Shown here: positions 329-19,422 of the stretch, one piece after another
Layout of the letters: each line of letters begins with the position of its first letter
How positions within the stretch are numbered: the first letter of the stretch is position 1
NCBI GenBank assembly: GCA_015520605.1
Contig: WAPT01000025.1
Location: 1 to 39,104 of the forward strand
Direction: 5' to 3'
From: Nanobdellati archaeon
GTDB lineage: Archaea > EX4484-52 > WAPT01
DNA length: 39,104 nt
Program-made: the position numbers and the translations under genes
Notes under the pieces: model-generated
What the model was told of the DNA's origin: nothing
The model's input: the letters and a program-made list of their open reading frames with translations, nothing else
Database searches by the model: none

Positions 329-661
329 CTACTCCATCTCATCCTGCACGTATTTTCTACCAGTTTTGAGACATTCTTCTGCTCTGGCAAGTTCATAACC
401 GAGATAAGCGGCATGATCCAGCATTGTCACAAGATCGTATTTTAGTATGGTACGGAACAGATCTATACTGTTTTTTCCTCGGAAAACAAACTTGAGCCTC
501 CCACTTCCCGGCTTTTTATCATCTCCCACATATTCATAAGCTTCAACAACGATCTCCTTTGCCTCGTGATCCACATTTATGACGAAGAAATGTCTATCAA
601 GCTTTATCTCAGATTCATCATGCTTCTCGGCCCTTATCTCAAAAATCCTGTGGGGAAGCAT
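329..661 (-). CDS. Stand-alone DUF4346 domain protein
   Basis: C-terminal LDHAAYLGYELARAEECLKTGRKYVQD matches the DUF4346 signature HAxYLGxELxxAExxLxxGxxYxQD. Its start overlaps the glyA stop by 1 nt (TAATG). Confidence 0.85.
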   Translation of the reverse strand: MLPHRIFEIRAEKHDESEIKLDRHFFVINVDHEAKEIVVEAYEYVGDDKKPGSGRLKFVFRGKNSIDLFRTILKYDLVTMLDHAAYLGYELARAEECLKTGRKYVQDEME

Positions 662-1917
662 TAGCAGTAGTGCACCTCCCTAAAGCTTTTTCTGAACTCC
701 ACAACATCATCCCTAACATTTTCATCCTTAACGATTACACGATGTATGAATTCTGCTATCACTTCCATGTCACTTTCCTTACACCCCCATCTCGTCATTT
801 CCTGTGTGCCTATCCTTATGCCAGAGGGGTTCTTCATTGTCTCAGCGTTTGTTTCATCCCCAGGAATCATGTTCTTATTGGCTATTATGTTATTCTCTTC
901 CAGCTTTTCAGCGTTAATCTTACCCCCTCCATACTCCCTCACATCTATAACAACTTGATGGCTCTCGGTGTATCCGTATGGTTCTCCAAGAACCCTAAAA
1001 CCAAATTCTGCTAGCCTTTCTGCAAGCTTCTTAGCATTCTTTATGGTCTGCCTGGCGTAAGCCTCGCCATACTTCCACATTTCCCATGCTGTTTGCGCCA
1101 GAGCAGGAAGCCTGTGAATGTGATGGTTGCACACCAGCCTTGGAAATATGGCTTTTTGCACTCTTTCAAATTCGACATTTTCAGCAGCCATTACAACTCC
1201 TCCCTGGGGGCCGGGAAACGTTTTGTGAGTCGAGCTGGTGACTATGCTCGCGCCTTCCCTGAAAGGTTGCTGAAATTGCCCTCCTGCTATCAAACCAAGG
1301 ACGTGTGCGGCATCATAAACTACCAAACCTCCATAACTCTTTGCCGCATCGCTTATCTCCTTTATCGGGTGAGGGAAGAGGAAAAGCGAAGCTCCAAGTA
1401 TGACCATCTTTGGCTGCTCTTTCTCAATGATTTTCACCGCCTTATCCTCATCTATGTTCATCCTCTCCCTATCAAACGGAAGCTGCAGGACTTCCACACC
1501 CCTCAAACCAAGTGCGCCATGAATTGTGTGAGAGACGTGCGCTCCTGCAGGAACATCCAGAGCAGCAACTTTATCCCCATTTTCCAGAAAAGCAACGAAT
1601 ACGGCAAGGTTTGCTATTGTGCCGCTCAGGGGGCGGAGATCAACGTGATCAGCATCGAAAAGCACGGATATGATTTTTTGAGCCCTGACCTCCACCTCGT
1701 CCAAGTACTTGTGCCCTTGGTAGTATCTTTTGAAGGGTAAGCCTTCAGCATATCTGTGCATCATATCATTGAGATAAAGCCTCTCTGCCACTGGAGACAT
1801 GACGTTTTCGCTTGCTATGAGGTTTATACACTCGTATTTGCGCCAGAGATCATGGTGTTTGGTCAGATAAACAATCTCTCCTATCAGCTCCTCTGGACTT
1901 TTCTTCATCAGCACCAC
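661..1917 (-). CDS. glyA: Serine hydroxymethyltransferase, archaeal type
   Basis: LIASEN, YAEG, GAHVSH, DAAHVLGLIAG and the PLP-lysine motif SSTHKTFPGPQGG are present. Start is GTG 1917 or ATG 1908. Confidence 0.97.
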   Translation of the reverse strand: MVLMKKSPEELIGEIVYLTKHHDLWRKYECINLIASENVMSPVAERLYLNDMMHRYAEGLPFKRYYQGHKYLDEVEVRAQKIISVLFDADHVDLRPLSGTIANLAVFVAFLENGDKVAALDVPAGAHVSHTIHGALGLRGVEVLQLPFDRERMNIDEDKAVKIIEKEQPKMVILGASLFLFPHPIKEISDAAKSYGGLVVYDAAHVLGLIAGGQFQQPFREGASIVTSSTHKTFPGPQGGVVMAAENVEFERVQKAIFPRLVCNHHIHRLPALAQTAWEMWKYGEAYARQTIKNAKKLAERLAEFGFRVLGEPYGYTESHQVVIDVREYGGGKINAEKLEENNIIANKNMIPGDETNAETMKNPSGIRIGTQEMTRWGCKESDMEVIAEFIHRVIVKDENVRDDVVEFRKSFREVHYC

Positions 1918-2065
1918 AGGGATGGTTTAGGGGAGTAATAAATTTAAAATGGATGGAAAGTGCAGTTATACTCCGTTTTCACACAAACCGTCCACAGAGC
2001 CTCGGCTTTGAATGGAGAACTGGCAGAGGGACAAACATAAATTTTTTCCTGCGGGATAAGAACTT

Positions 2066-3361
2066 ATGAAAGCCGTGCGAGAGATTGTAAGAGCAGAACC
2101 CATTGACTATGCTCCGGTTTTTGAAGGTTTCGGGCCTGATGAAATAGTAACGGTATCGGGCATTCTCACGGCAAAGCGGGGCAGCTTCAAAGAGATGCTC
2201 AACACGCTTGATCCAGGTGTTGTAAAAAAGTTCCATCGGGAAGCGACAAGAAGGGGACATGCAAGTCTGCTAACAACACCCACATTCTATTTTTGGGTTG
2301 AGGGAAGCAGACTTATAGATCTCTTTTTCACAGCTTTTCCCTTTGGATCCTACCTGATGTTTAGTTCGCGCCGAATTGAGGTTACCAAGGAAAACATGAT
2401 CATCCCGGATGCTGTTGCAGGGACACCTTACGAAAAGGGTTATGTTCGGGTCTGCGAGAAGCTACTGAAAGTTTATAAGGAGCTTCTAAAGATTGGATAC
2501 GACCAAGCGAGGAACATACTCCCACTCGGATTCAGTTCTTATGGGTTATTTTCATTCCCAATGCAGACGATCCTCACGGCCATCAAAGAATGCGAACTAA
2601 ATCCTGAAATTCCTGAAGAAATACAGCTTATTTCCAACTTTTTCAAAGAGATTTTGAAGGAAAAAACACCATTCATCTTTGGCGCTTCCGAGAAAGCACA
2701 TTCCACGGGTTACCCGTTTCCCAACATATTTGGACGCCATGAAATAATGGAATCTCCTTCCATAGATGTTGTTCATGCAGGTGATATAAAAAGCGTCATT
2801 AAGCTGGTTTCTGAGAGGGGCTGGAAAGAAGCTGCAGAGCATGCGCAGACAGAGATTCTTGTCAAATGTGTGAGCACGCTATCCATAGCGGCGTGGAACG
2901 AGATAAAAAGGCACAGAACGGTCAGGCAATTCGTCGAGCCGATCTATGTTGCAGCGGAGCGATACCTCAGGGATCCGAAGGAAGAGTATTTTCACATCCC
3001 TCCGGATGCGGGTAAAAATTACATTGAGGCATTTCATGAAGCTATGGTGTTCTATGAGAGGCTTGTTGATGAGGGTGTGGATAGAAAACATGCGGTCTAC
3101 ATAGTGCCGCATGCTCTTAAAATAAAATTCAAGCTGCTCTTGGATGGGTATCATCTGCTGAACCCCTTCGGTTTTCTGGGTGTGAGGTGCTGCACCACGA
3201 CCCATTACGAGGTGAGGAACTTTGCCGGAGAAATAATACGTGCACTATCTGATTCTTTTCCGGAGCTGGAACCCTTGCTTGGACCCAAGTGCAAGACGGG
3301 TGTGTGTCCTGAGAGGAACCCATGCGGTAGGGTTAATCTTTACAGAAAAAACAAAAATTAA
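2066..3361 (+). CDS. thyX: FAD-dependent thymidylate synthase, tandem (double-domain) type
   Basis: RGHASLL and SSRR in the N-half. EIKRHRT, A-x-Y-I-V-P and terminal GPKCxxGxCPExxxCG in the C-half. 431 aa is about twice a single ThyX domain. Confidence 0.85.
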   Translation: MKAVREIVRAEPIDYAPVFEGFGPDEIVTVSGILTAKRGSFKEMLNTLDPGVVKKFHREATRRGHASLLTTPTFYFWVEGSRLIDLFFTAFPFGSYLMFSSRRIEVTKENMIIPDAVAGTPYEKGYVRVCEKLLKVYKELLKIGYDQARNILPLGFSSYGLFSFPMQTILTAIKECELNPEIPEEIQLISNFFKEILKEKTPFIFGASEKAHSTGYPFPNIFGRHEIMESPSIDVVHAGDIKSVIKLVSERGWKEAAEHAQTEILVKCVSTLSIAAWNEIKRHRTVRQFVEPIYVAAERYLRDPKEEYFHIPPDAGKNYIEAFHEAMVFYERLVDEGVDRKHAVYIVPHALKIKFKLLLDGYHLLNPFGFLGVRCCTTTHYEVRNFAGEIIRALSDSFPELEPLLGPKCKTGVCPERNPCGRVNLYRKNKN

Positions 3362-3394
3362 AAATAATTAAAATCAGTTTTAATGAGGAGTTTC

Positions 3395-3688: not shown

Positions 3689-3850
3689 ATCTTTACCCTG
3701 CGGATACAAACCGTTAAATTTCTTTGCATTTCTTGCTTGAGACCGTATGGGTAACAAAATAAAGCTTCAACGCTTCGGGGATGAAACATCAAAACACAAT
3801 CCATGATTTTTGAATATTGATGGAAAAGGTAATCTTTTGAAAGAGTAAAA

Positions 3851-6575: not shown

Positions 6576-7061
6576 CTATAAATTCATTATGTATCTGTCT
6601 TCAGTAACATGCGAGAGTGGCACAAAGTCCTTCCTTCTAATATGTTCTTCCACAACCTCTCCTACAACTATGTAATGATCTCCGTGCCTGTACATCCCAT
6701 CAACAACACACTCGAAGCTTATCGGCGCTTCCCTTATACACGGTGCGCTGATTTTTCTTGACGGCTCTTTTGTCAGATTGGCAAGTTCAAACTTGTCAAC
6801 ATACCTGCCAGAATGAGTGCCGCAGATTTCTGCAGCTTTTTTCATGCTCACATCACACACATTAATGGTTAACTCCTTCGTTTCCTTCAGGTTCTCGAAG
6901 GTGTATCTCTGCGGAGCTATGGAAACCGCCAGATATTTCGGTTCAAAACTCACCGGCATAACGAAGCTTGCGGTCATGACGTTCGGCTTTCCTTCTCTAT
7001 TCACAGAGCATACAAGTACAACGGGCCTCGGCCATATCTGCTGGGAGATGCGCATCCGCAC
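6576..7061 (-). CDS. Flavin reductase family protein (DIM6/NTAB, split-barrel FMN-binding)
   Basis: PRPVVLV, NVMTAS, CGTHSGRYVDKF, FEC and GDHYIVVGEV. Starts 15 nt after the thyA stop. Confidence 0.9.
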   Translation of the reverse strand: MRMRISQQIWPRPVVLVCSVNREGKPNVMTASFVMPVSFEPKYLAVSIAPQRYTFENLKETKELTINVCDVSMKKAAEICGTHSGRYVDKFELANLTKEPSRKISAPCIREAPISFECVVDGMYRHGDHYIVVGEVVEEHIRRKDFVPLSHVTEDRYIMNL

Positions 7062-7076: not shown

Positions 7077-7772
7077 TTACTCCCTTACAGATTCAGCAAC
7101 TCTCCTTGCGGTTTCAAAGTCCCTGCTATAAATATGAGCTGAAACAGAATAGCTATGTAGCTCTCCCATGAAAACTCTCTCACCAAGTCTCTTTCCAACT
7201 TCTTCCGCAACATACTTCTGGAGGTGTGTCAAAGCTACCCAGTTAGCGTAGCTCGCTCCAAAAATATCGTGGCTTCTGAAAAGCACGTCCATGTGTAGCT
7301 TTTTTACCGCGGGTAGCATTGGCGCTTCCTTCTCTTCCCTTATATTGAAGCAGATCACACGGAGGCAGGGGGGATCCCTTATCCTGTTAGGGAAGTGGTC
7401 TAAGGTCGGAATGGTGAGGTCGATAACTGCACGCCTGGTGAAAGGACTTTTGCTGAGTCTTTCTATGACGGCTTCCACTTGATTAACCTTTTCATCCCAT
7501 TTCCATATTCGTTCGCCGTATGTGTACTGAAAGCCCCACCTATTCTCCGGAGTCATAAGCTGATCGACATAGTCCTGCAAAGCTTTTCCGTGAAACGGAT
7601 ATTCCGCGGGAGCTTCATCTATACTTATGGTGGGCTTTTTTATCCTGACTGCAAGCCCTATAATCTCTTTCGTTTCGTCACCATCTTCTGTGACCATAAT
7701 TTTTCCGTGCTCCATAACCGCTTTGACGGCTTTCCTCCATGCATCCTCCGTAGTGTTTGCAACTATCAGCAT
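7077..7772 (-). CDS. thyA: Thymidylate synthase, short archaeal (methanogen-like) ThyA
   Basis: YTYGERI, TRRA phosphate-binding arginines, catalytic PPC, RSHDIFGASYAN with the dUMP-specifying Asn, and SAHIY. Probable start is ATG 7772 (231 aa); the ORF track extends to 7886. Confidence 0.88.
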   Translation of the reverse strand: MLIVANTTEDAWRKAVKAVMEHGKIMVTEDGDETKEIIGLAVRIKKPTISIDEAPAEYPFHGKALQDYVDQLMTPENRWGFQYTYGERIWKWDEKVNQVEAVIERLSKSPFTRRAVIDLTIPTLDHFPNRIRDPPCLRVICFNIREEKEAPMLPAVKKLHMDVLFRSHDIFGASYANWVALTHLQKYVAEEVGKRLGERVFMGELHSYSVSAHIYSRDFETARRVAESVRE

Positions 7773-7810
7773 AACATAATCAAAGCATGAAAAATTTTTT
7801 AGGGTTCGCG

Positions 7811-7849
7811 ACTTTGCCGGGAGAGTTGCGAGACATATTGCCGGCAATA
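7811..7849. promoter_or_regulatory. Pair of palindromic candidate operator sites between divergent thyA and wHTH genes
   Basis: Perfect 14-bp palindrome TATTGCCGGCAATA (7836-7849) and imperfect ACTTTGCCGGGAGAGT (7811-7826). Their CCGG centres are 24 bp apart. Confidence 0.55.
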
Positions 7850-7857
7850 CGGAAATC

Positions 7858-7865
7858 TTTATATA
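7858..7865 (+). promoter_or_regulatory. Putative TATA box for the wHTH / giant surface protein operon
   Basis: TTTATATA preceded by GGAAA (BRE-like). A Shine-Dalgarno-like GAGGTG lies at 7921-7926. Confidence 0.55.
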
Positions 7866-7937
7866 CAACTCATCATTCTTATTCACTCTATAGCTCGAGA
7901 TTTCGAAATGCGAGTATGGCGAGGTGCTTTGAAGATC

Positions 7938-8159
7938 ATGAATATCTGTGAAAGAATTGTTGAGGAGCTTTCAAGGAAGCCAATGTCTGTTTCTGAGTTA
8001 GCTAAACGTCTCAATCTGAGGAGGGAGTTCTTGACGGGATACCTTGAAGCGATGAGGCAACAGGGTCTGTTGGAAAGAGTGGTGGTGGGGAGAGCACACG
8101 TTTACATCCCAAAACAGACCGTTTCGCTTAGTGGTGTGAGTGATGGTGAAGAGGAATAA
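7938..8159 (+). CDS. Small winged helix-turn-helix regulator
   Basis: IVEELSRKPMSVSELAKRLNLRREFLTGYLEAMRQQGLLERVVVGRAHVY is a typical archaeal wHTH. Start is ATG 7938 (alternatives 7929, 7908). Overlaps the start of the giant gene. Confidence 0.8.
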   Translation: MNICERIVEELSRKPMSVSELAKRLNLRREFLTGYLEAMRQQGLLERVVVGRAHVYIPKQTVSLSGVSDGEEE

Positions 8160-11100
8160 ATGGTTTATGGTGAAGGTAACAGTACTGTTGCTGGTAGTGC
8201 TCACAGTAGTGAACTTTAGCGCTCATGTTGCTTTTGCTCAGCCCAGCATAACATTAGTTCCACCAACTCCAAAGAATGGATCCGTAATCAACGTGTCGTG
8301 GTTTGAGGTGAATGCATCAAGTGTGGCTGCAAATCTCACACAGCTAAACCTGACGCTCGATGGTGTGAATTATTCAGTTTATGATAACTCAATTGTACTC
8401 TATCTCGGTTTCAACAACGTCTCGGCCATAGGGGAGAACAGCACGAATTTTGTTGACATCTCGCTCTACGGTAACAACGGTACATGTAACATAACCGCCG
8501 GAACATGTCCGGAATATGCTGTCGGGATCTTCGGCAATGCCCTGAGCTTTGACGGGGTGGATGATTATGTGGAAGTGCCGGACGGTTCTGAGTTTAATTT
8601 TACGGCTTCAGACAAATTCTCTGTTTGTGCTTGGGTAAATTTACCTGAAACTTCGAGCTACGAGGCTGTAGTCTCACAGGGTGATTATTCCGGATGGAGG
8701 CTTTTTGTATATAACACTTCATACTTTTTTGGATTTAATGGAACTGATGGTGTGTATCGTCAGACAGGTGCGCCGTTTGTTTACGGGAGTTGGCAGTTTA
8801 TTTGCGGGGAATATAATGGAACACACATACTCTTGTATAGAAACGGGGATTTAGATTCAGCTTACTTTACGAACGCGACGCCAATAGATCCAAATGCACC
8901 CGTAATTGTAGGCGCAACTTACACCGGTGCCTCTGCGGTTTTAAGGTGGTTCGCCAACGGCACAATCGATGAAGTCCGCATTTACAACAGAGCTTTGAGC
9001 GATGAGGAGATAAAGCTTCTCTATCGATCGTACCTCGCAAAATTAAACGCCACAGTATGGAATTTTTACGCGAATATCACGAACCAGAGCGATGGTCTGC
9101 ACACCTTCTCATTAACCCTTGAGGACAATGGAAGCGCAGTGGCAACCACCGGCACGAGATACGTGATAGTGGACACAAAACCACCCCGGATAATCGTGAC
9201 ATCCCCCGTTAATATGAGTGAATACAGCTCAAGAAATGTTACTCTGAACGTAAGCGTAGCGGATGTAACACCAGCCAACATAACTTATGAGGTGGACGAC
9301 AACGGCACGATCTTAACCCTCTGCACAAACTGCTACGGTGGCAGCGCCGTCCTCAGCAATCTAAGCGATGGTCTGCACACGGTGAAAATCACAGCAGTGG
9401 ATGCGGCTGGCAGGCAAAACGAAACAAGAGTGTACTTCAGAGTCGGAGCCACTCCGGTACATTTCATTATCGTTGATGGGCAGAACACATCACTTTCTGT
9501 GGTGGGGGCTCTCATCACCCTCGTGGGGAACGAAACATTCATTCCTTCGATTTACTCCAATCTCACAAACTCATCCGGCATGGTAACATTCCTCGTGGAC
9601 TCGAGCCAGGAATATTCCATCATCGTTTCAAAGGACGGATATCGCACCATAGTTCTTAACAATGTTGTGTTCAAAGCAGGCGATGTGATCAACCTCACCC
9701 TGTGGGGTAACACCACGATAAACGGCACGGTTTTGGACATCCTAACAAATCTTTCCATAAAAAACGCAACGGTGAAAATCTACAACGCTTCTGATTATCA
9801 GCTGAAATATGTAGTAAGAACTGATGACAATGGCTGGTTCTCGGCTGAGATCCCGTCCACAATGGACTATATCATAGAGATTTCGAGCATCAATTTTGTT
9901 ACCCGAAGCTGGTACTTTGATGCAGGAACGAACCTCAACAACTACACTTTCGAACTTTATGAGACGGGATGGGGCAGTTTTGAGGTATGGGTTGTTGATT
10001 ACCAGAACCACGCACCGATCGAGAACGCAACGGTAACCTTCGTACTTTCTGCAAGCGAGAACTTCACAGGAACAACGGACTCTAACGGCTATGCCAGAGT
10101 ATTTGTTAAAGCAAATTTAATCGACGGATATCCAGCAAGATATGGAATCGTGATCAAAAAAGACGGTTACAGAGAATATGAAAACCTAAGCGCCAATTTG
10201 ACCATTGAAGAAGGTGAGAATGTTCTTGTTGGAGAGTTCGAACTAAAGGGCTGGTATGTTATAAACGGCACGGTTACGGACGAATTCAACCCGTCACTTG
10301 CGGTCAGCAACGCTTCGGTTGAGCTGTGGTGGATGGATGGTGGAACGCTGGATGCTCCGGTCAATATCAACGGCTACAGATATTATACGATGACTGACGA
10401 GAGAGGACACTTTGAGATTTACGTTCCAAAACTGCTGCTCGAAAACAGAACCTTCGCTCTGAGGATTGACAGAGCCGGATATCAGCACCTCGATTACCCT
10501 TCGAATGGTGTTGGTCTATCGGCAGGAGAACAGGGTGTATTTAACCTCAATATAAAAATGAAGGGCACGATAAATATCAAGCTGACGGTTAAGGATGAGG
10601 GTAACGGGGCTCCGGTTCCGGATTTACCTGTGGTGATCAAGGAAAACAGTACGGAAGGGTACAATTACATTGCTCCCGCAACGTACACCTTCCGCACTAA
10701 CGGGGACGGAACGATAAATGTGTATATCAGGGGGAACGATGGCTACACTGTTGTGGTGGACGGGAGCTCGAACGGTTATCAGACACCATCACCTATAGAA
10801 GTTAACACGGGGACTGATTTGGATAGAGTGGTTTATCTCAGGGGCAGTTTGCAGATAACGGGGAGAGTTATTGATGTTAACACGGATGAAAACGGTTACA
10901 CAATAACTCTACCGGGCATAAGGGTCGTGCTATGTCCTGTATCGGGATCAACGTCCTGCTATGTTACGGAAACCAGCTCCTCAGGAATATTCTCCGTTTA
11001 CGTTAAGGGTTATGAGGATTATGAGATTACCGCGGACGGTAAGGAAAGCGGGTACAACACCACAACTATTCTAGTTAACAGTGCAGCAACCACATCTTTA

Positions 11101-14100
11101 GATGTGGGCGACATAGTGTTGGAGGGCAGATGCACAATAACCGGAAGAGTCATCGATAAATATTCAAGGTACATTCCGAAAGGCGTGTCCCCATACATTC
11201 CGAACCCGAGAGTTATAGTGGTCATGAACTTCAACGGAAAACTCATACGGTACTCTGTTGTTGGGGACGATAACGGTTACTTCACCATAAAGGTGCCCGC
11301 CGGTCAGATTGCCAGTAGCATCCGGATAGAAGTATTGGGTTACTATCCGTATCTCCTCGAGAATGTGGGCACAGTTGATGGCACCAAAAATCTCAGCACC
11401 ATTTCTCTTGTGGGGGCAACGCATTTGGAAGGCAAGGTTGTGGATGCCCACAACGGGAAGTCGCTGGGTGGTGTGAGTGTTAAAATTTATGAACCAGAGA
11501 ACGGTTCTTCAAAGCTCAGATACGAGCTCACAACCAATGATAGCGGACAATTCAACATAGATCTTGGTGTAACAACCGAATATACCGTGGAGCTGAGCAG
11601 AGCAGGATACACAACTGCAAGCTTTGAGGAAACACCATTCGAGAATATAAGCAGGACTTATTTCATGACGGGTGCAGGAAAAATAAGCGGAGAGGTACTT
11701 GATTACTACACAGGCACGCCCCTGCAGAACTTTACCGTAGAGCTATACGCGGAGGGAGACACAACTCCCACCTATAAATTCAGCAACCTTCATGGGAGCT
11801 TTACGATGTTTGTCGACAGCACGAAGTGCTACCGTATACGGGTTTACCAGTACGGATACCCCGTATTGTGGGTGGGGGGTGGGAAGTGTTACACACCACC
11901 AGTTGATTTTAGCGGGAGTAACGCGATAAAACTGAGGGCTTACTTTGAGACCTTTGTCTGCGATCGTTACAGTTACGATCCCGATAGTGAAAGTCCCTGT
12001 TATCCTCACAGACCCATCAAAAATGCCGATGTTGTCCTCTATTTCCGCACGAATGAGACCGGAAACTACGAAATAAATGGGCTCAATGTGACCAAGGTGA
12101 GAATCGATCTTAGCACGAAATACTGCTCGAATTCAAGCGCAAAGATCACCCTGACAAAGCTCGACGGATGCACGCAGGCACAGCAGAACCACAACCTCTG
12201 CACGATGACCGGTACTACAAACTCAACCGGTTACGCTTCCTTCCTTTACGTGCCGGTTGGAAAATACAGAGTCACTGTTGATGCGGTTAGTCAGGGATGC
12301 GGCATAAAGGAGGAGGAATTCAATATCTCAACAGAGAATGCGGGCAAACTCAACGTATGGAAAATCGAGTTTGTCAGGACATGGCTGGAAATTAACGTGA
12401 CCGATGGGCAGTACCCTATCGGTGGAGTGAATGTAACTTTATGGAACGGCTCCGTGATAGCGAGGAACACCGTTGGTGATCCGCTAACCGCCATAACAGG
12501 GATTGACGGCAAGGTTGTTTTTGACATGATGAGTCCCGGCACCTATACCCTCACAATGAAAAAGACCGATGCGGGAATAGATATTGTTAGAACAGTTGAG
12601 GTAAAAGAGGGCAATAATACACTTGTTTTTGATGTGCTACCACCCAGAATAACGGACACATACCCGAAGGACGGGGATATCATAATTCACGGCTGCGCGC
12701 TTTCCCCGCCACAACCCCTAACCCTTTGGGTTGCGACGAGCGAACCGACAACTGCAAACATAACTCTGGAGAAGTACGACGGCACGCTTCAACTACCCTT
12801 GATCACCAGCAATGTCACCGAGACCAACCACAGCTGGGAGCTTGCTCTGAGCTGCGGTGATTGGGTGTGGAACATAACTGCATGTGATTCTGCGGGAAAC
12901 TGTAATCACACGCACGTAACTTTCATACTTGCAAACGGGACCTCAACCGTGGCATTCACAATTCTCGATAACGGGGTTGCGGTGAGCGGCGCAAACGTAA
13001 CAATGTGGACCGCTACCGGAAAAATAGCCGAGAACACCACCGGTGCGAACCTCACCGCCATAACAGGGATTGACGGCAGGGTTGTTTTCACCGGTGTGAT
13101 TCCCGACAGTTACAACATCACCGTAAAGAACGCCACGAAACCCGTACTGACATTCATGAGAGGTATTTACAATACCAATTATAACTTTATTGTGGATTAT
13201 CAGAGACCAAGTATAACCGCGGTAGAACCCGAAAACAACACAAAATACTATGTCGCCTGCGGTGTGGACAAAGGTGCTAACGTAACTTTCAGTATCAACA
13301 CATCCGAGAGCACCAATTTCAGTGTTGATCTGGAGGGTGTCCAGACCATCCATTGGGGAAATCAAGAAGTATCGAACTCAACTCTGTTCAACCTGACACT
13401 TCCCTGTGGCAAGTGGAAATGGAATGTGACGGTCTGCGATCTCACTGGTAATTGCACAAATAAGACCAATCTTATCTTCGAGATTGTGGACACAAGCTTC
13501 ATAGTCAACGTGACTGATGAATACGGCAGACCGCTTGACAACATTTCCGTAACAGTGAGTAACGCCACGTATGCAGAGACAATACGTACAACCAATGGTC
13601 TGGCGATTTTCGGAAAGCTGGAAAATAATACACTCTACAACATAACTGTCAATGGCACTCTTCAGGGATATGGAAATGCGGTATTTACAAACCACGATGT
13701 TATCTGGGGTGATGTGCTAGGAGTTAGCCTCAACGTCACAACACTTACAGTTCTCGTCTATGATCCCTCGGGAAATCCGGTCAGCGGAGCCGAAGTAAAG
13801 GTGTATGAAAATTCCTCGGGTAGCTGGACGCTGGCAAGAGATGCAAACGGTAATCCGCTGATAAATACAACCGGAATTGATGGGAAGGTTGTGTTTACTA
13901 GAGTACTGCCATGCGATTACTGCAATGTTACCGTAAACAAGACAGGAACTATAAACTCCACAATTTTGAGCATCAGGGCAGGCGAGAAGGAACAGGTAAA
14001 TCTGGACCCGGAGATAATTTCGGGGGAAACTCCATTTGAACCTATCAATTCCTCTTCTGGGGAAAGATTTTTGGTTATACTCAAAATCCTTGACGAGTTC

Positions 14101-17100
14101 AACAAAACCGTTTTTGAAAATGTTACTGTGAAGTTAATCTCCACAACAACCGGTAAGGAATATGTTAACCGCACGGATAATAACGGGGTGGTGACCTTTA
14201 ATGTTACCTCCGACAGGTTCGATGTTATTGTTGATGGCTCTGATATGGGCTACGGGATTCTCACACTCAAGCGGGCAATAGCCATCGGATGGCTGAAGAT
14301 TAACGAGGGCAAAACCTATGCCAATGGTTACGTACGGCTTGATGTTGACGGGCAGCGCTATTATTATGTATTGGTGAAGGCGCCCGGTTATGAGGAATAT
14401 GACTCTAGAGATGAAGGCAAGGTGTATTTCGGTACACACACGATGGGTGATCATAATAACATTAATCTAAGTGGAACTGTAGAGGTGATGGGCCACGTTT
14501 ATGATACCTATTTTTCAAATCCCATCGACGCCAGAAAGAACATTTCTGGTGCGGATGTTTATCTCTATAGCTTAACCGGAACACCTTATGTAAGATACAG
14601 ATTCACAACGGACTCTAACGGTAACTTTTATGGTAGAATTTCTCCATATGTGGAGGGATCATCCATCCATGATAAAAGCTTGGACACATACAAACTTGTG
14701 GTTAAAAGGAAGGGATACATTACTTATACATACATAAACAGTACTACAGGTAATTCCAGAATCATTTTTGGTGATGACGAAAAAAAGTACTTCAACATAG
14801 GTATGACTGGTGTCGGAAGAGTTTACGTGCACCTTTACGATAAGGTAAATGGAGCACCCATAACTAACTACTCAAGCTTTAAACTTATTGATAGCAATGG
14901 GGTGGAACTTTACAGAAACATAGGCAGGGAAGGAAATCTGCTTTACGGTATTTACAATCCAGACTACAACCCTGCTCATCTTGTGGTGGAGGCCAGCGGG
15001 TATTGTCCGGCAGATATACCCGTAACATCTTTCGGTAACCTCATAAACATTCCCGTTTACCTGTACACATACGAAACATCGCAGCTGCTCATAACCGTAA
15101 GGGACATGCTGACCAGTCAGCCTGTTTCAGGTGCCACGATAACCTGCTATTACCTCGGCACCGACGAGAAGGTGTGTGAGGCGAGAACGAATTCCAGCGG
15201 CATGGCTCTGGTAACGATAAGTAAAAGCGGAACTTTAAACATTAAAATTAATGGGACATCCACATATCACGGAATCAAAATGATAGAGAATGTGAAAATC
15301 AATCCATGCGATGGGATCAAAATCAAAATCATAAATACAACTCTAATCCCGACGGGAGCGATAATCAGGGCGGTGAATGATCTCAATGAATACATCGATG
15401 GAAGGGTTCGCATGGTTAACACAAGAACGGGAAGAAGCTACGAGGTTCACATCAAGAATGGCGAAGCCATTTTTGCACCCATTCCGCCGGGTAATTACTC
15501 AATTGATTATGAACTTGGCCTGGTATATCTGCCGGCGAACGTATCCAATTATGTAAACATAACATCTTACGGTCAGCTTAAAAATGTAATTTCCATATTT
15601 AACGAGACCAGATTCGAAGTAAAGTTGGTTGATAACCAGACCTCTCTACCTGTGCGGGATATTAAAGTGTGTCTTGGCACCACATGTCTGTTTACAAATT
15701 CGGATGGAATTGCTTTGTTCAGGAGAGTCATACCCGGAAATTACACTTTGACCTTTGATAAGCTAAGTTCTTATAAAGCTGGATATTTCCCACACAACGA
15801 TGTTAACGTGAGTGTTGTTCGTGGTAAAAACGAGAATACAGGTAATAAGTTGGTGGTTAACCTTACACCAACTAAGGGATATAGCATTCTTCATATTAGG
15901 GTCAGAAATATCTACGCGAAGAACACCATGATCTATGTCTATGCCGATGGTGCAAGACTATATGCTCTTAATACAAGCAGAAACGGACTCGAGGCGTTTA
16001 TTCCTCTGATATATCCGCGAGAGGCAATGAAGGTCAAGGTTAAGGCCACACATCCTGGCTGTGGTATGTTTGTTTTTGGTCCTGTAGACCTAACAGAACA
16101 AGAGGTCAGGGATGTTTACATAACATTCAAATGCAGATCTGCAAGTTCCGAGGAGGGGTATAGACCATTAACTACTACCTCAATTAACGGAACGGGTAAT
16201 TTTCCTCAGAACAAACCTTTTTTTGCGCTCACCGTTGTTCCAAATCCAGTCGAGATATCTCCGGGCGGGTGCGCAACCGGAGAGTTAAGTTTAGAGAACA
16301 CGGGAGAAAAAATAATCACAAATGTGGTTTTGCGGAGTATAAAAACACCATACTACGCAATCAATGGTATTGGTCACATAGTAGCACTACTTCCGGATGA
16401 CAGGGAAATAATAAGATACTCGCTATGTATTTTCCGACCAGTAAACGAAGTTACAGCGACTCTTCTTTCCGATCAGTTGACAAAGGAGGTCACGATACCA
16501 GTGACATTAGTCCCTGAGACCATCAATGAAACGGAAACCAAGTCAATGCTTCTCGAAGACCTCAACGAGCTTAGGATGAAGTTGCTGAGCATTAACAGGA
16601 GCGCATTGCCTCCCGAGTTGCAACGAGAATATGATGAGGTGCAGGCACATTTGCAATTTGCGAGCAATTACGTAGCGAGTGGCAACTACGCACTCGCGAG
16701 AAATGAAACAGAGGAGGCGAGAAGAATATTGGAAAATCTGGAAAGTTACATGGTGTCCACTAAACAGAATGGATTGAATAAAAAAAGAGGAATTTCAAAA
16801 GAAACGATAATAATATTGTCCTTTATAGGGGTCTTTGGGATCTTAATACTGATTTATTTGAAGGAAACAAGAAATATTTTCAAACAAGCGTCATCTGGAT
16901 CTGCAAGTTTACTCTCAAAAATAGTGAAAGATATACCTGCGGGATTCGTAAAGAGAGCTGAAAAAAATAGAGGGACGTATCGCACATCCTCGATCCCGTC
17001 CAGATCATCCATACATCCCGTTCCCCGGTTCACCGCTGAAAACGTACCAGTTGTGATGGAGGGAGGAAAAGATATTCATCCTGAGCATTCAGATTTTCTT

Positions 17101-17226
17101 TATTTCACGGAGCCCGTTGCAAAACAGGAATACATATCTTACCTCAAAAAAGTAATAGAGAGCACGGAACGCTGCCCTTACTGTGGAATGAGGAAGGTCA
17201 ATGGAAGGTGTCTTAGATGTGACTGA
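8140..17226 (+). CDS. Giant (3028 aa) type I membrane-anchored surface glycoprotein / adhesin: signal peptide, LamG domain, many Ig/CnaB/carboxypeptidase-regulatory-like repeats, TM anchor, cytoplasmic Zn-ribbon
   Basis: N-terminal basic + hydrophobic signal ending AFA. LamG motifs ALSFDGVDDYV and NGTIDEVRIYNRALS. Recurrent PIxNATV...TDxNG...Y.I...KxGY units. Very frequent N-x-S/T sequons. TM IIILSFIGVFGILILIYL. Terminal CPYC...CLRC. Confidence 0.9.
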   Translation: MMVKRNKWFMVKVTVLLLVVLTVVNFSAHVAFAQPSITLVPPTPKNGSVINVSWFEVNASSVAANLTQLNLTLDGVNYSVYDNSIVLYLGFNNVSAIGENSTNFVDISLYGNNGTCNITAGTCPEYAVGIFGNALSFDGVDDYVEVPDGSEFNFTASDKFSVCAWVNLPETSSYEAVVSQGDYSGWRLFVYNTSYFFGFNGTDGVYRQTGAPFVYGSWQFICGEYNGTHILLYRNGDLDSAYFTNATPIDPNAPVIVGATYTGASAVLRWFANGTIDEVRIYNRALSDEEIKLLYRSYLAKLNATVWNFYANITNQSDGLHTFSLTLEDNGSAVATTGTRYVIVDTKPPRIIVTSPVNMSEYSSRNVTLNVSVADVTPANITYEVDDNGTILTLCTNCYGGSAVLSNLSDGLHTVKITAVDAAGRQNETRVYFRVGATPVHFIIVDGQNTSLSVVGALITLVGNETFIPSIYSNLTNSSGMVTFLVDSSQEYSIIVSKDGYRTIVLNNVVFKAGDVINLTLWGNTTINGTVLDILTNLSIKNATVKIYNASDYQLKYVVRTDDNGWFSAEIPSTMDYIIEISSINFVTRSWYFDAGTNLNNYTFELYETGWGSFEVWVVDYQNHAPIENATVTFVLSASENFTGTTDSNGYARVFVKANLIDGYPARYGIVIKKDGYREYENLSANLTIEEGENVLVGEFELKGWYVINGTVTDEFNPSLAVSNASVELWWMDGGTLDAPVNINGYRYYTMTDERGHFEIYVPKLLLENRTFALRIDRAGYQHLDYPSNGVGLSAGEQGVFNLNIKMKGTINIKLTVKDEGNGAPVPDLPVVIKENSTEGYNYIAPATYTFRTNGDGTINVYIRGNDGYTVVVDGSSNGYQTPSPIEVNTGTDLDRVVYLRGSLQITGRVIDVNTDENGYTITLPGIRVVLCPVSGSTSCYVTETSSSGIFSVYVKGYEDYEITADGKESGYNTTTILVNSAATTSLDVGDIVLEGRCTITGRVIDKYSRYIPKGVSPYIPNPRVIVVMNFNGKLIRYSVVGDDNGYFTIKVPAGQIASSIRIEVLGYYPYLLENVGTVDGTKNLSTISLVGATHLEGKVVDAHNGKSLGGVSVKIYEPENGSSKLRYELTTNDSGQFNIDLGVTTEYTVELSRAGYTTASFEETPFENISRTYFMTGAGKISGEVLDYYTGTPLQNFTVELYAEGDTTPTYKFSNLHGSFTMFVDSTKCYRIRVYQYGYPVLWVGGGKCYTPPVDFSGSNAIKLRAYFETFVCDRYSYDPDSESPCYPHRPIKNADVVLYFRTNETGNYEINGLNVTKVRIDLSTKYCSNSSAKITLTKLDGCTQAQQNHNLCTMTGTTNSTGYASFLYVPVGKYRVTVDAVSQGCGIKEEEFNISTENAGKLNVWKIEFVRTWLEINVTDGQYPIGGVNVTLWNGSVIARNTVGDPLTAITGIDGKVVFDMMSPGTYTLTMKKTDAGIDIVRTVEVKEGNNTLVFDVLPPRITDTYPKDGDIIIHGCALSPPQPLTLWVATSEPTTANITLEKYDGTLQLPLITSNVTETNHSWELALSCGDWVWNITACDSAGNCNHTHVTFILANGTSTVAFTILDNGVAVSGANVTMWTATGKIAENTTGANLTAITGIDGRVVFTGVIPDSYNITVKNATKPVLTFMRGIYNTNYNFIVDYQRPSITAVEPENNTKYYVACGVDKGANVTFSINTSESTNFSVDLEGVQTIHWGNQEVSNSTLFNLTLPCGKWKWNVTVCDLTGNCTNKTNLIFEIVDTSFIVNVTDEYGRPLDNISVTVSNATYAETIRTTNGLAIFGKLENNTLYNITVNGTLQGYGNAVFTNHDVIWGDVLGVSLNVTTLTVLVYDPSGNPVSGAEVKVYENSSGSWTLARDANGNPLINTTGIDGKVVFTRVLPCDYCNVTVNKTGTINSTILSIRAGEKEQVNLDPEIISGETPFEPINSSSGERFLVILKILDEFNKTVFENVTVKLISTTTGKEYVNRTDNNGVVTFNVTSDRFDVIVDGSDMGYGILTLKRAIAIGWLKINEGKTYANGYVRLDVDGQRYYYVLVKAPGYEEYDSRDEGKVYFGTHTMGDHNNINLSGTVEVMGHVYDTYFSNPIDARKNISGADVYLYSLTGTPYVRYRFTTDSNGNFYGRISPYVEGSSIHDKSLDTYKLVVKRKGYITYTYINSTTGNSRIIFGDDEKKYFNIGMTGVGRVYVHLYDKVNGAPITNYSSFKLIDSNGVELYRNIGREGNLLYGIYNPDYNPAHLVVEASGYCPADIPVTSFGNLINIPVYLYTYETSQLLITVRDMLTSQPVSGATITCYYLGTDEKVCEARTNSSGMALVTISKSGTLNIKINGTSTYHGIKMIENVKINPCDGIKIKIINTTLIPTGAIIRAVNDLNEYIDGRVRMVNTRTGRSYEVHIKNGEAIFAPIPPGNYSIDYELGLVYLPANVSNYVNITSYGQLKNVISIFNETRFEVKLVDNQTSLPVRDIKVCLGTTCLFTNSDGIALFRRVIPGNYTLTFDKLSSYKAGYFPHNDVNVSVVRGKNENTGNKLVVNLTPTKGYSILHIRVRNIYAKNTMIYVYADGARLYALNTSRNGLEAFIPLIYPREAMKVKVKATHPGCGMFVFGPVDLTEQEVRDVYITFKCRSASSEEGYRPLTTTSINGTGNFPQNKPFFALTVVPNPVEISPGGCATGELSLENTGEKIITNVVLRSIKTPYYAINGIGHIVALLPDDREIIRYSLCIFRPVNEVTATLLSDQLTKEVTIPVTLVPETINETETKSMLLEDLNELRMKLLSINRSALPPELQREYDEVQAHLQFASNYVASGNYALARNETEEARRILENLESYMVSTKQNGLNKKRGISKETIIILSFIGVFGILILIYLKETRNIFKQASSGSASLLSKIVKDIPAGFVKRAEKNRGTYRTSSIPSRSSIHPVPRFTAENVPVVMEGGKDIHPEHSDFLYFTEPVAKQEYISYLKKVIESTERCPYCGMRKVNGRCLRCD
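9088..9380 (+). repeat. 17-bp direct repeat AGCGATGGTCTGCACAC (9088-9104, 9364-9380)
   Basis: Both copies encode SDGLHT in consecutive Ig-like domains. Confidence 0.75.
12487..13088 (+). repeat. 35-bp direct repeat with one mismatch (12487-12521, 13054-13088)
   Basis: ACCGCCATAACAGGGATTGACGGCA(A/G)GGTTGTTTT encodes TAITGIDG(K/R)VVF. A third, diverged copy (TTGIDGKVVF) lies near 13870. Confidence 0.85.
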
Positions 17227-17227
17227 C

Positions 17228-17243
17228 CAAAAAAACAAAAAAC
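17228..17243 (-). terminator. Oligo-T terminator candidate downstream of mtrH-like gene
   Basis: Minus strand reads TTTTTTGTTTTTTTGG about 20 nt after the stop at 17264. Confidence 0.5.
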
Positions 17244-17263
17244 TACCATTCAAACCTATTACA

Positions 17264-18151
17264 TCACAGCTCAAGCCCGTAGACCTGAATAAAACGAGAG
17301 TTTCTTTCCTCCACCAGCATTTCCACAAAGGCGGTCGCGTCAAACACATACCTTGCATTTTCTATTGGGCCGTAGAGAACAAAATCCGCACCGAATAGAA
17401 CTGGCAGTACACTCGATGCCACATCAACATGCTTGCAGCTTTCTCTTTTTTTTATCCAACTCCACGAACTCACAGCATTATGCATCCCGCAACCGGTGGG
17501 ATAACCGTACCTCGCTTTCAGCGTGACCAGAGCCTCCAGAGACGTGGCCGCACCACGTTTTAGCGGTGTGGTGGCGGTATCCATCATAAGATTCTCGGCA
17601 CCGATCTCCCTGACATTTTCAAGCAGTCCCTTACCGAGAGCACCGTCCTTCTCAAGACACGATATCTTGTCCTCAATACTTTCTCCCCCGACAGCATGCG
17701 CAAGGATCAGAACATTTTTTAATCCAATTTCTGTAAGTTTTTCCTTTTCATCCCTGTTAAGGGTTATGTTTATGGAGTTGTACACAATTCTTGAGAGAAA
17801 CCCGGTTTCCTTTGCAAATTTTATTGCCTCTACTCTGGCCTTATAGCTGAGAGAGTCCACGAGAATGGGATTCCCGTCCCTTTCAGCCACAAACTCGAGC
17901 CGTTTGAGCAAGGAGGTGCTATCTTTTCCATAAACATTGGTCATGTAAGGGATTCTGGTTTCATCGCTTCTCTCCTGTTGCAGAACGAGAAGTTCTTCAG
18001 CCTTGTCGCTATCGAATTCACCGTTTTGCTTCACTATTTTATGTCCTTCATAAAAAATCGTTCCGATCATGACTGGCGGCGTTTCTCCGGGCTGACCTCC
18101 AAGCACGATATTTCCTATTTTCATTTTTTTCTGATCCGGATAGAGGAACAT
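17264..18151 (-). CDS. mtrH: MtrH-like pterin-binding methyltransferase
   Basis: GGQPGETPPVMIGTIFYEGHK, DS, YNSIN, TGCGMHN and GADFVLYGPIE. Start is ATG 18151 after a GAGGTG SD; the ORF track extends to 18184. Confidence 0.92.
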   Translation of the reverse strand: MFLYPDQKKMKIGNIVLGGQPGETPPVMIGTIFYEGHKIVKQNGEFDSDKAEELLVLQQERSDETRIPYMTNVYGKDSTSLLKRLEFVAERDGNPILVDSLSYKARVEAIKFAKETGFLSRIVYNSINITLNRDEKEKLTEIGLKNVLILAHAVGGESIEDKISCLEKDGALGKGLLENVREIGAENLMMDTATTPLKRGAATSLEALVTLKARYGYPTGCGMHNAVSSWSWIKKRESCKHVDVASSVLPVLFGADFVLYGPIENARYVFDATAFVEMLVEERNSRFIQVYGLEL

Positions 18152-18205
18152 GCGTTTTCCACCTCTCTGCGGAGGAAGATCCAAAATTCAAAGCAACATC
18201 AAAAA

Positions 18206-18844
18206 CTAATTCTCACACAATCTTTCCATCATGTTTATTTTAAAAGTTAGCGGATCCAGAATAGTAATCTCGTTGAGGTAAATGACCTCGCTTTTTCCTG
18301 AGTAGATTTCGCATCTCTTCGTATCTTTTGTCTTGTGCCCGAAGGTATGCAGCACTTCATCAACATCCACTTTTTTGGGAAACTGCTGTGGTTTTTCCTT
18401 TTCAAGTTCCGTCAAAACCTCCTCAATTTTGGACACGGAAACGTTGCCTACGAGATCAACAACCTCCAGTATCTGCTGTCTGAAGTGTTCTACCCATTCC
18501 CTCCTTATGTTTTCAAGATAAGGAATGGCACCTCTTGCCCCGACAATTCTACCTTCTCCATCCACCCCATTTTCAACGAGCTTTATCAGTGCGTCTCCGG
18601 GATAATGTCCTTTCGATTCCTCGCCGTATAGTACGAGATAGCGGATGTTGGGATTGGTTATCACGTTGACTATTATTTTTTCAACTCCCAGATTCTCCGT
18701 TTTGACACTGCCGAGTATGGCGATAGAAACGTGATGGAGAAGATCTGTGAAACTCTCCGGTTTGGTATTGAGGGTTGCTACAGCGATCCAGCCTTCCGGG
18801 TTGTTTACAATATAGTCCCCGATTAGTGGGGGCCAATTTTTCAT
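18206..18844 (-). CDS. mtrA: MtrA-like corrinoid protein, soluble (no C-terminal TM anchor)
   Basis: WPxxxGDY, KTENLGVEKIIxNxxxNPNIRYL, GxExKGH (cobalt-ligand His, codon 18605-18607) and GARGAIPYLEN. Confidence 0.92.
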   Translation of the reverse strand: MKNWPPLIGDYIVNNPEGWIAVATLNTKPESFTDLLHHVSIAILGSVKTENLGVEKIIVNVITNPNIRYLVLYGEESKGHYPGDALIKLVENGVDGEGRIVGARGAIPYLENIRREWVEHFRQQILEVVDLVGNVSVSKIEEVLTELEKEKPQQFPKKVDVDEVLHTFGHKTKDTKRCEIYSGKSEVIYLNEITILDPLTFKINMMERLCEN

Positions 18845-18855
18845 CGAACCTCACA

Positions 18856-19422
18856 TTATATTTTCTTTGTAGGAAACGATGGATTTGGTTGGGAAATAGC
18901 CAACCCTCCAAGAAGATGTGAGACATCGACGAAATCCACTTTTATTCCCGCATCTTTGAGAATCTCGAGCCCTTCGGTATCGCTGTATTCTCCGCAGACC
19001 ACAACCCTTTTTATTCCCGCATTAACCGTCATTCTGGCACACAGCTTGCAGGGAAACCCGTTTACATAAAGAGTTGCACCTTCTGCATTTCTGCCTGCCT
19101 GCATCAAAGCGTTCATTTCGGCATGAACAGCTATGCACTCCTCATGCATCATTCCGCTTGTACCACCTTTGGCCCTCTTCGGGCAGTATCCGAGTTCTAT
19201 GCAGTCTTTCATACCTCTCGGGGCTCCATTATAACCTGTAGATATGACTTGTTTGTTCTTCACCACCACCGCACCGTACTGCCTTCCAGGGATTATGCAG
19301 GTGGATCTCTGCGCAACAACCCAAGCCATTAAAGCGAAGTATTCGTCCACGCTTAATCTGGTTCTGCGCAGTGGTAAACTCTTTTCGTTTTCTCTTCCCA
19401 TAATCTCGGTTTTATCCCTCAT
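18856..19422 (-). CDS. dCMP deaminase (ComEB/deoxycytidylate deaminase family)
   Basis: RSTC, STGYNG, and zinc motifs HAE and PCxxC. Probable start is ATG 19422 after a GAGGTG SD. Confidence 0.9.
   Translation of the reverse strand: MRDKTEIMGRENEKSLPLRRTRLSVDEYFALMAWVVAQRSTCIIPGRQYGAVVVKNKQVISTGYNGAPRGMKDCIELGYCPKRAKGGTSGMMHEECIAVHAEMNALMQAGRNAEGATLYVNGFPCKLCARMTVNAGIKRVVVCGEYSDTEGLEILKDAGIKVDFVDVSHLLGGLAISQPNPSFPTKKI

Follow-up and report, generated by a model that had tools for sequence, protein, structure and literature searches.

A soluble MtrA-type corrinoid protein associated with methanogen-type thymidylate synthase in a lineage of small-genome archaea

To our knowledge, only two routes to thymidylate (dTMP) have been established, namely thymidylate synthase ThyA acting with dihydrofolate reductase (DHFR), and ThyX. 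Dihydrofolate is channeled in the bifunctional DHFR-thymidylate synthase (DHFR-TS), and a three-part layout characterizes the corrinoid MetH modules and MtaABC-type systems. For the soluble homologues of MtrA, the role has been left open (PMC4915002). Biochemical work on archaeal ThyA is scarce, and the donor of the one-carbon (C1) unit for the methanogen-type enzyme is experimentally unsettled, according to two reports (PMC9012536, PMC9931769). Core methionine synthases (MesA) have been predicted to take a methyl group from corrinoid proteins including MtrA (Price et al. 2021; PMC7857596), and the flavin-using phage 5-hydroxy-dCMP synthases show that folate can be replaced by a different cofactor in the ThyA fold (PMC13326640). 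Here, we analyzed a stretch of 39,104 nucleotides (the window), which is contig C25 of an archaeal genome of 863,228 bases in 27 contigs (G000, estimated to be 90.7% complete) and in which genes for an MtrA-like corrinoid protein, an MtrH-family methyltransferase and a DUF4346 protein lie among genes for a methanogen-type ThyA, serine hydroxymethyltransferase (SHMT) and dCMP deaminase. It is highly probable (roughly 0.9) that in the phylum of this archaeon a soluble MtrA-type corrinoid protein works with methanogen-type ThyA in the synthesis of dTMP, as an alternative to ThyX.

Association of MtrA with ThyA in the phylum and in fused proteins

The phylum was sampled through 42 genomes of a single order, by family-model searches and by fetching the loci; the genomes are related metagenome-assembled genomes, and the counts, like the Fisher tests made on them, describe a pattern and are not a proof. 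Over 41 genomes, MtrA and ThyA were found together in 23, MtrA only in three, ThyA only in five and neither in 10. Of the three genomes with MtrA only, one carries a divergent fused ThyA that was recognized by alignment only, another has a fusion cut by the contig end, and the third is 68% complete. Canonical ThyX (225-247 bits) was found in none of the 26 genomes with MtrA and in eight of the 15 others. Since canonical ThyX sits only in MtrA-free genomes, MtrA plus ThyA and ThyX behave as alternatives, and both the co-occurrence of MtrA with ThyA and its exclusion from canonical ThyX hold, as expected for the original prediction of a dTMP route distinct from ThyX. MtrH and stand-alone DUF4346 were found together in 13 genomes, each without the other in one, and neither in 26; both were restricted to genomes with an unfused MtrA or an MtrA-MtrH fusion.

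The survey of co-localization that had been proposed recovered the same gene set in reshuffled adjacency over several families. In the two congeners of G000, namely the sister species G001 and G002, the order of the genus is conserved, with dCMP deaminase-MtrA-MtrH, ThyA near the flavin reductase, and SHMT-DUF4346, and the module proteins of G000 are 89-96% identical in amino acid sequence to those of G002 and 68-85% identical to those of G001. The dCMP deaminase gene adjoins MtrA in all three genomes of the genus, and SHMT adjoins DUF4346 in the same three and in four of the four loci fetched from genus g6. In f6/g6, a dCTP deaminase gene adjoins MtrA in five of six loci fetched and lies 2.8 kb off in the sixth, and MtrH adjoins ThyA in four of four. 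The dCTP deaminase is non-homologous to dCMP deaminase and likewise feeds dUMP. Because two unrelated dUMP-making deaminases occupy the same slot beside MtrA, a shared function of MtrA and dUMP supply is suggested. The donor-side methyltransferase and the corrinoid protein are also encoded together, since the MtrA and MtrH genes of the window are 21 nt apart and the two proteins are fused in G011 (genus g10), in which the MtrA-MtrH fusion open reading frame (ORF) is directly upstream of a ThyA-domain ORF. The latter (L020:4693-6057; 454 amino acids) has approximately 250 C-terminal residues without a family match and a very long tree branch. In genus g13, SHMT adjoins canonical ThyX instead of DUF4346. 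No further conserved partner, such as a reductase or an activase, was found beside MtrH-ThyA, SHMT-DUF4346, dCTP deaminase-MtrA or the fusions.

MtrA and ThyA are also joined covalently. In f3/g3 they form one protein of 474-508 amino acids (L015, L017), f2 has a single ORF of approximately 485 amino acids with a weak MtrA, a ThyA and a weak DUF4346 match (L022), and f8 has an MtrA joined to a divergent stretch that resembles ThyA, as judged from the alignment. A full phmmer scan with an MtrA-ThyA fusion was run against 1.84 billion representatives and the hits were scored with local hidden Markov models; 156 proteins were examined, consisting of the best 150 representatives (50%-identity clusters) and six proteins from earlier searches. 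The architecture was MtrA-ThyA in 18 of the 156, MtrA-DUF4346-ThyA in three, MtrA alone in 92 and ThyA alone in three, and the two architectures named in the original prediction, MtrA-DUF4346 and MtrA-ThyA-DUF4346, do exist, in 36 and four proteins. MtrA and ThyA thus occur together in 25 of the 156 proteins, including at least 23 of the best 150 representatives, and because they do so in two domain orders, more than one fusion event is indicated. In 43 of the 156, DUF4346 is joined to MtrA, to ThyA or to both. Earlier word-based searches had given one longer relative for the ThyA query and five for the MtrA query, and the fusion families surfaced by phmmer. The ThyA part of one fusion (P0049) scored 200.9 bits on TIGR03283, above the cut-off, and ten fusion clusters that were looked up have one to three members each, without a source-given name. 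The NCBIfam family NF002128 models the 390-amino-acid MtrA-DUF4346 architecture; several of these MtrA-DUF4346 proteins (P0002, P0003, P0004 and 33 others) have a Cys-rich N-terminus, high GC and a bacterial-looking composition. Next to the MtrA-ThyA fusion gene of g3, two RimK-family ATP-grasp ligase genes are divergently oriented (L015:7785-9534 on the minus strand, L012, L017); the pair is kept in the three g3 loci with enough flank. The better-scoring member reaches 190 bits on rimK_fam but, at 143.8 bits, stays far below the MptN cut-off of 350, so that a role as pterin-glutamate ligase would be no more than a possibility.

The ThyA of the window passes the methanogen-type family TIGR03283 narrowly (Table 1), and the G001 copy, with 172.5 bits, is just under the cut-off of 174.55. 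When aligned to solved ThyAs, it retains the catalytic Cys and the RR, RSHD (RSxD), N and HxY positions, and a YG motif is also present; the catalytic Cys column is Cys in 26 of the 35 ThyA-domain proteins examined. Judging from the alignment, the start of the protein may be Met39 (7077-7772), as in other genera, but the G001 ThyA aligns from residue 6. With an AlphaFold2 model (predicted local distance difference test (pLDDT) 81.0; predicted template-modeling (TM) score 0.83; 7-row alignment), Foldseek gave 396 matches in the Protein Data Bank (PDB) at E<=1e-3, which among those listed were ThyA-fold enzymes throughout (E 1e-11 to 1e-12), the best being the flavin-dependent phage enzymes 9iqu and 9iqc (TM 0.70). 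In a quick tree, all 28 MtrA-linked ThyAs, together with seven unlabeled rows, fell on one side of a branch with 96% SH-aLRT support, and none of the remaining 67 rows was MtrA-linked. Of the 113 columns with at least 90% conservation in 56 ordinary stand-alone ThyAs, 31 are lost in the MtrA-linked clade, Arg and Trp columns among them in several cases, and 26 are retained, the dUMP-activating catalytic set included. Such losses fit a changed C1-donor site, and could also stem from general divergence.

The MtrA of the window matches solved MtrA 5L8X (E 1.7e-37) and 5LAA at about 1e-37. Its motifs GDY, KTENLG, N60 and GH(80) are invariant in the MtrA alignment (A6) and correspond, by motif and not by superposition, to the cobalamin contacts described in section 6 of PMC4915002; the His ligand of cobalt, H80, is present, and is kept in 16 of the 18 MtrA-ThyA fusions. 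As for the membrane Mtr complex, the window MtrA scored 149.4 bits on the Mtr-complex equivalog TIGR01111, under its cut-off of 249.15, and searches of G000 for MtrE and McrA gave no match, the Mtr subunits B, C, D, F and G not being among those looked for. Because the genome lacks MtrE and McrA, the MtrA and MtrH of the window appear to stand outside the methanogen Mtr complex, and membership in the membrane complex was ruled out on the TIGR01111 score and on these two negative searches. Likewise, MtrH passes the Pfam cut-off and is below the equivalog cut-offs (TIGR01114, 245.5 versus 271.4; NF002142, 244.8 versus 287), and it scored 185.5 bits on MtgA. It is a member of the family and probably not the methanogen equivalog. 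The soluble MtrA proteins of the phylum have a conserved tail (residues 160-212 in the window) that contains a DPxxF motif as well as an invariant Cys. A complex prediction for two ThyA chains and one MtrA (alignments A5 and A6), beside which no controls were folded, scored 0.02 versus a mark of 0.32 and speaks neither for nor against binding. CobS was not found in G000, and since a B12 enzyme is predicted there, this suggests reliance on imported cobamide. This second predicted B12 enzyme of G000 (L122:1399-2811, contig C23) is a radical SAM protein with a B12-binding domain, which resembles HpnJ at 208 bits, a score below the cut-off.

DUF4346 accompanies the soluble MtrA/MtrH module as an accessory protein. 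The AlphaFold2 model of DUF4346 (pLDDT 84.9) has three strands and two helices, and Foldseek gave no PDB match at E<=1e-3, so that no function can be taken from the fold; a docking or capping role is our guess. The C-termini of the Thermoplasmatota-type DUF4346 proteins (for instance L086:12341-12667) have a conserved Gly-Gly-Cys end.

The genes of the window could constitute a three-component corrinoid methyltransferase system with dUMP as the final methyl acceptor, the odds of which we consider to be about even, and in which we infer every chemical step joining ThyA and the corrinoid. In such a system, dCMP deaminase would provide dUMP and SHMT would put the C1 unit of serine on tetrahydropterin as methylene, which a MetVF-type reductase, whose gene lies in the G001 cluster and was not found in G000, would convert to methyl-pterin. 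MtrH would then pass the methyl group from methyl-pterin to Co(I) of MtrA, and the Cys of ThyA would add at C6 of dUMP, allowing the C5 carbanion to take the methyl group from methyl-Co(III) to give dTMP and Co(I). No DHFR would be needed because the pterin stays tetrahydro. This methyl-cobamide route is favored because in G001 and g11, which have no methionine synthase, methyl-pterin has no linked sink other than MtrH and then MtrA, and MtrA has no linked partner other than ThyA. A ThyA-fold enzyme that takes a ready-made methyl group from MtrA-bound methyl-cobamide would represent a third mechanistic class of thymidylate synthesis, a proposal that is tentative and to which we give slightly less than an even chance. 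If it is right, the MtrA-ThyA(-DUF4346) fusions would be single-polypeptide B12-dependent thymidylate synthases, for which one possible methyl donor is host-scavenged methyl-pterin bound in the old pterin pocket of ThyA.

Genes of the window and accessory functions

The genes were called from the ORF list and from Pfam and NCBIfam profile scores with curated cut-offs (Table 1). The seven minus-strand genes of the original prediction, from dCMP deaminase to DUF4346, were all placed by these methods where they had been described, in three tight units. The gaps are 11 and 21 nt in the deaminase-MtrA-MtrH unit and 15 nt between ThyA and the flavin reductase downstream of it, and the DUF4346 and SHMT ORFs share 1 nt at the glyA stop. 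Between the three units lie 9 kb and 4.5 kb of other genes.

Table 1. Features called in the window, with their family scores.
Feature	Position	Strand	Evidence and remarks
DUF4346 (PterinBD-DUF4346), stand-alone, 110 aa	329-661	-	PF14251 74.9 bits, above the cut-off of 29.6
SHMT (glyA), makes methylene-pterin	661-1917	-	PF00464 222.9 bits; NF000586 444 bits
Thy1-domain (thyX-like) protein, 431 aa, divergent from glyA	2066-3361	+	two weak Thy1 halves, 39.8 and 61.6 bits
HpaC-like flavin reductase (Flavin_Reduct)	6576-7061	-	PF01613 123.7 bits
ThyA, methanogen type	7077-7886	-	TIGR03283 177.2 bits, cut-off 174.55
3028-aa ORF with CarboxypepD_reg, Laminin_G_3, bMG3 and Ig-like domains	8140-17226	+	probable cell-surface protein
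MtrH-family methyl-pterin:corrinoid methyltransferase	17264-18184	-	PF02007 253 bits, cut-off 22.8
MtrA-like corrinoid (cobamide) protein, soluble, 212 aa	18206-18844	-	PF04208 158.8 bits, cut-off 25
dCMP/cytidylate deaminase, dUMP-producing, opens the deaminase-MtrA-MtrH unit	18856-19437	-	PF00383 74.1 bits
DUF1512	19489-20730	-	adjoins the deaminase-MtrA-MtrH unit

Membership of one dTMP module, as originally proposed for this gene set, is supported by fusions, adjacency and co-occurrence for MtrA, MtrH, DUF4346, ThyA, SHMT and the deaminase, but not for the flavin reductase and the thyX-like gene. The flavin reductase was found in four of the 42 genomes of the phylum, three of which belong to the genus of the window, and it lies near ThyA in all three members of the genus; it is an add-on nearly confined to the genus, where it might, as a guess, keep cobalt or flavin reduced. 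A Thy1-domain gene does lie divergent from glyA as described, but it is atypical, with 47 bits on TIGR02170 versus a cut-off of 87.9. The gene was found in two genomes only, G000 and G002, and is absent from G001, and in comparison with the intact ThyX of g13 and g5 its product has the ThyX motif split, each half keeping a different part. As judged from its sequence, this diverged tandem protein could represent either a degenerate, pseudo-dimeric form of ThyX or an enzyme whose function is new, and its membership in the module is doubtful.

The remaining genes in the 19 kb, namely those for the surface protein, Lrp, GNAT, an M20 peptidase and a small membrane ORF, were judged to have no relation to the module. 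The 3028-amino-acid surface ORF is conserved in the corresponding position within the clusters of G001 (42-45% identity) and G002. DUF1512 is found beside deaminase-MtrA-MtrH in the genus and approximately 1.1 kb from MetVF in g11 (L128:8225-9400; L129), and this proximity could reflect either leftover synteny or an association with the module.

One-carbon supply, other acceptors and alternative explanations

Among the genera that have MtrH, methylenetetrahydrofolate reductase (MTHFR, PF02219) was found in one of three genomes of g1, six of eight of g6 and all four of g11; mismatches were MtrH without MTHFR in g10 (G011) and MTHFR without MtrH in two of four genomes of g5. In G001, the cluster itself contains a MetV-MetF fusion (PF12225 and PF02219), flanked by the flavin reductase and SHMT; in G000 and G002, the same interval is filled by the thyX-like gene and genes for Lrp, GNAT and M20. 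Of the two roles that had been proposed for MtrA, MtrH and DUF4346, methyl supply to ThyA or redox recycling, methyl supply fits better, since the MetVF-type MTHFR tracks MtrH and lies in the G001 cluster. DHFR, FolD, MTHFR, MetE-type and homocysteine-binding domains were not found in G000, and MetE-type domains were not found in G001, G002, g11 or the fusion-bearing genomes. Because no MetE-type or homocysteine methyltransferase domain was found, ThyA is the only linked acceptor in G000.

Genes for other possible acceptors were found outside this phylum. In 25 of 80 MtrA loci, mostly with Thermoplasmatota titles, the arrangement was MtrA-MtrH-core MetE-DUF4346 (for instance L086:9983-12667, L047, L053 and L111), and the core MetE of the L086-type operon (PF01717, 298 amino acids) scored 255.7 bits on NF002119 versus a cut-off of 258. 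This operon has the appearance of a corrinoid methionine synthase of three components to which DUF4346 is added as a fourth, and methanogen-type ThyA was not found in three genomes that contain it. Ten of the 80 loci, with Thorarchaeota titles, have MTHFR-MtrH-MtrA-MtrH (L055:8149-11547 and nine others), in which MtrH paralogues flank MtrA, and the methanogen loci have the ordinary mtr operon. A methanogen-type ThyA gene is located at 2149-2748 of contig C10 of G045, which is possibly the contig of L055. MtrA, MtrH and DUF4346 thus look like a portable methyl-cobamide cassette that serves different acceptor enzymes, and we infer that the acceptor is the core methionine synthase in one lineage and ThyA in the phylum of the window. 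The case of MtrA and MtrH feeding a methionine synthase, which the original prediction had itself named as refuting, therefore applies to the Thermoplasmatota loci, but no such synthase was found in G000.

Several observations weigh against the proposed role of MtrA in dTMP synthesis, or against the route as drawn for the window. The phyletic counts are non-independent because the genomes are kin, and the ThyA tree came from a quick search and has long branches for opr_L020 and several fusions. No ThyA was found near MtrA in the 80 genome_contigs MtrA loci, some of which are outside the phylum. Among 80 metagenomic loci of methanogen-type ThyA, six were fusions and the other 74 had flanks without MtrA, MtrH, DUF4346, MTHFR or deaminase, so that the link is not a general property of methanogen-type ThyA. 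In the genomes with fusions (g3, f2 and f8), no MtrH, SHMT, MTHFR or stand-alone DUF4346 was found, and MtrH therefore cannot be universally required; among 11 fusion loci there was no conserved neighbor, and the His ligand of cobalt is replaced by Phe in some triple fusions and in f2. MTHFR was not found in G000 or G002 (best tblastn E 0.33; Mer was not searched), and since no recognizable MTHFR is present, the proposed route has a missing step in G000 as assembled. In G000 and G002, the reductase may have escaped assembly, its task may fall to another protein, methyl-pterin may be taken up from outside, or the route may be undergoing replacement. The RSHD Asp, which we take to be a pterin contact in classical ThyA, is kept in the window, and for this reason ThyA could still bind a pterin; by motif it corresponds to D169 of PMC13326640. 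Extracts of Methanosarcina thermophila form dTMP from labeled formaldehyde and tetrahydrosarcinapterin, according to PMC9931769, which fits a donor at the methylene level, at least there. Finally, our search found no literature link between MtrA and thymidylate synthase, most subscription journals being outside its range.

Some of these observations would also be expected if ThyA uses methylene-pterin directly and the corrinoid gives two electrons (Co(I) to Co(III)) to the exocyclic methylene, following the flavin logic of ThyX, or helps to keep the pterin reduced, as in the redox recycling of the original prediction. The kept RSHD Asp and YG motif, the fusion genomes without MtrH, SHMT and MTHFR, and the failure to find DHFR in G000 are consistent with such an electron-donating role, as are the N-terminal Rossmann and C-terminal TS parts of the fusions, which repeat the layout of DHFR-TS (fold matches 2h2q and 7fgw), and the Cys-rich N-terminus of the bacterial MtrA-DUF4346 proteins, which could hold a redox cluster. 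We consider it unlikely, though the most credible of the alternatives, because MtrH adjoins ThyA or is fused to MtrA and co-occurs with MTHFR, which is hard to explain without methyl-cobamide, and because no Co(III)/Co(II) reductase was found conserved with the module; we also know of no corrinoid dihydropterin reductase, which counts against it as well. Alternatively, MtrA, MtrH and DUF4346 may serve another acceptor, in methionine synthesis or through an unrecognized methyltransferase, while ThyA is ordinary and the clustering reflects shared C1 metabolism. The core MetE that accompanies the module at 25 of the 80 MtrA loci, the core MetE of five of the eight g6 genomes (once 4.5 kb from MTHFR), the 74 of 80 unlinked ThyA loci elsewhere and the published prediction that MesA takes a methyl group from MtrA (PMC7857596) all point in that direction. 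However, it would not account for the covalent MtrA-ThyA fusions, which have two domain orders in at least 23 of the 150 representatives and mostly keep the catalytic residues, nor for the two unrelated dUMP-making deaminases that adjoin MtrA or the finding that MtrA is never alongside canonical ThyX; with no MetE-type domain found in G000, G001, G002, g11 and the fusion genomes, and no homocysteine-binding domain in G000, we regard it as improbable.

Equally improbable is that the route of G000 is vestigial or under replacement, MetVF having been lost and an incoming thyX-like gene now making dTMP. G001 has MetVF without the thyX-like gene, and G000 and G002 have the thyX-like gene without MTHFR in the same interval, as such a replacement would predict, but all module genes are intact and conserved (89-96% identity to G002 and 68-85% to G001), the thyX-like motif is degraded in both halves and its score is far under the ThyX cut-off, and because G000 is 90.7% complete, MetVF may possibly just be unassembled. 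ThyA might instead be a flavin-using enzyme of the ThyA fold paired with the flavin reductase, resembling the phage dCMP 5-hydroxylases, as its best Foldseek matches (9iqu and 9iqc, TM 0.70), the flavin reductase 15 nt downstream and the folate-to-flavin switch documented for the phage branch in PMC13326640 would suggest. This explanation is very improbable, since the window keeps the Asp and the Asn, so that the phage swaps of Asn for the RSxD Asp and of Asp for the substrate-selecting (dUMP/dCMP) Asn, as given in that paper and mapped by motif, are absent, and since the flavin reductase is missing from 38 of the 42 genomes, including all those of g6, g11 and g3 with an MtrA-ThyA link; the fold matches may reflect a shared short form. 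That the grouping is a chance co-location of house-keeping genes is a notion suggested by the 9 kb and 4.5 kb between the units in a small, gene-dense genome, but it has practically no probability, being contradicted by the fusions, by the reshuffled adjacency in several families and by the phyletic patterns, and it was ruled out on these grounds.

Comparison with known systems

If cooperation between MtrA and ThyA through methyl-cobamide is true, there would be a third thymidylate route, which needs neither the tetrahydropterin hydride of ThyA with DHFR nor the flavin of ThyX, and a cobamide-coupled ThyA would represent a new cofactor dependence in DNA precursor synthesis. The DHFR-free life of these small-genome archaea would be explained, their DNA replication would depend on scavenged B12-type cofactors, because CobS was not found, and the soluble MtrA homologues and DUF4346 would receive their first function.

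The closest relatives of the window ThyA are the methanogen-type ThyAs of TIGR03283, which it resembles in score, fold, catalytic Cys and the dUMP-binding Arg, Ser, Asp, Asn, His and Tyr, and from which it differs in belonging to a divergent subclade in which, in the quick tree, all Form A members and all fused ones are linked to MtrA. With the membrane Mtr complex (MtrA-H), the window shares homologous MtrA and MtrH proteins and the cobalamin-contact motifs; however, its MtrA has the length of the soluble type, as do the cytoplasmic homologues to which Wagner et al. drew attention (PMC4915002). ThyX is likewise a DHFR-independent route to dTMP and adjoins SHMT in g13, but its fold and cofactor are unrelated. 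Among solved structures, the phage 5-hydroxy-dCMP synthases come nearest in fold to the modeled ThyA of the window, although their own substrate is dCMP and their reaction needs O2, unlike what is proposed for the window. The bifunctional DHFR-TS of protists and plants shares with the fusions the layout of a nucleotide-fold N-terminus and a TS C-terminus, the N-terminal domain of the fusions being MtrA and not DHFR. The three-component corrinoid systems (MetH modules, MtaABC-type systems and MesA) have in common with the window a pterin-side methyltransferase, a corrinoid carrier and a proposed acceptor enzyme, and the difference lies in the acceptor, which has the ThyA fold in the window and for which the acceptor atom is a carbon of dUMP, not a thiol. 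The MtrA-MtrH-core MetE-DUF4346 operon of the Thermoplasmatota type is the direct parallel to the module of the window, and if the chemistry holds, the window would encode a corrinoid methyltransferase system of a known type with a new acceptor enzyme, one of the ThyA fold.

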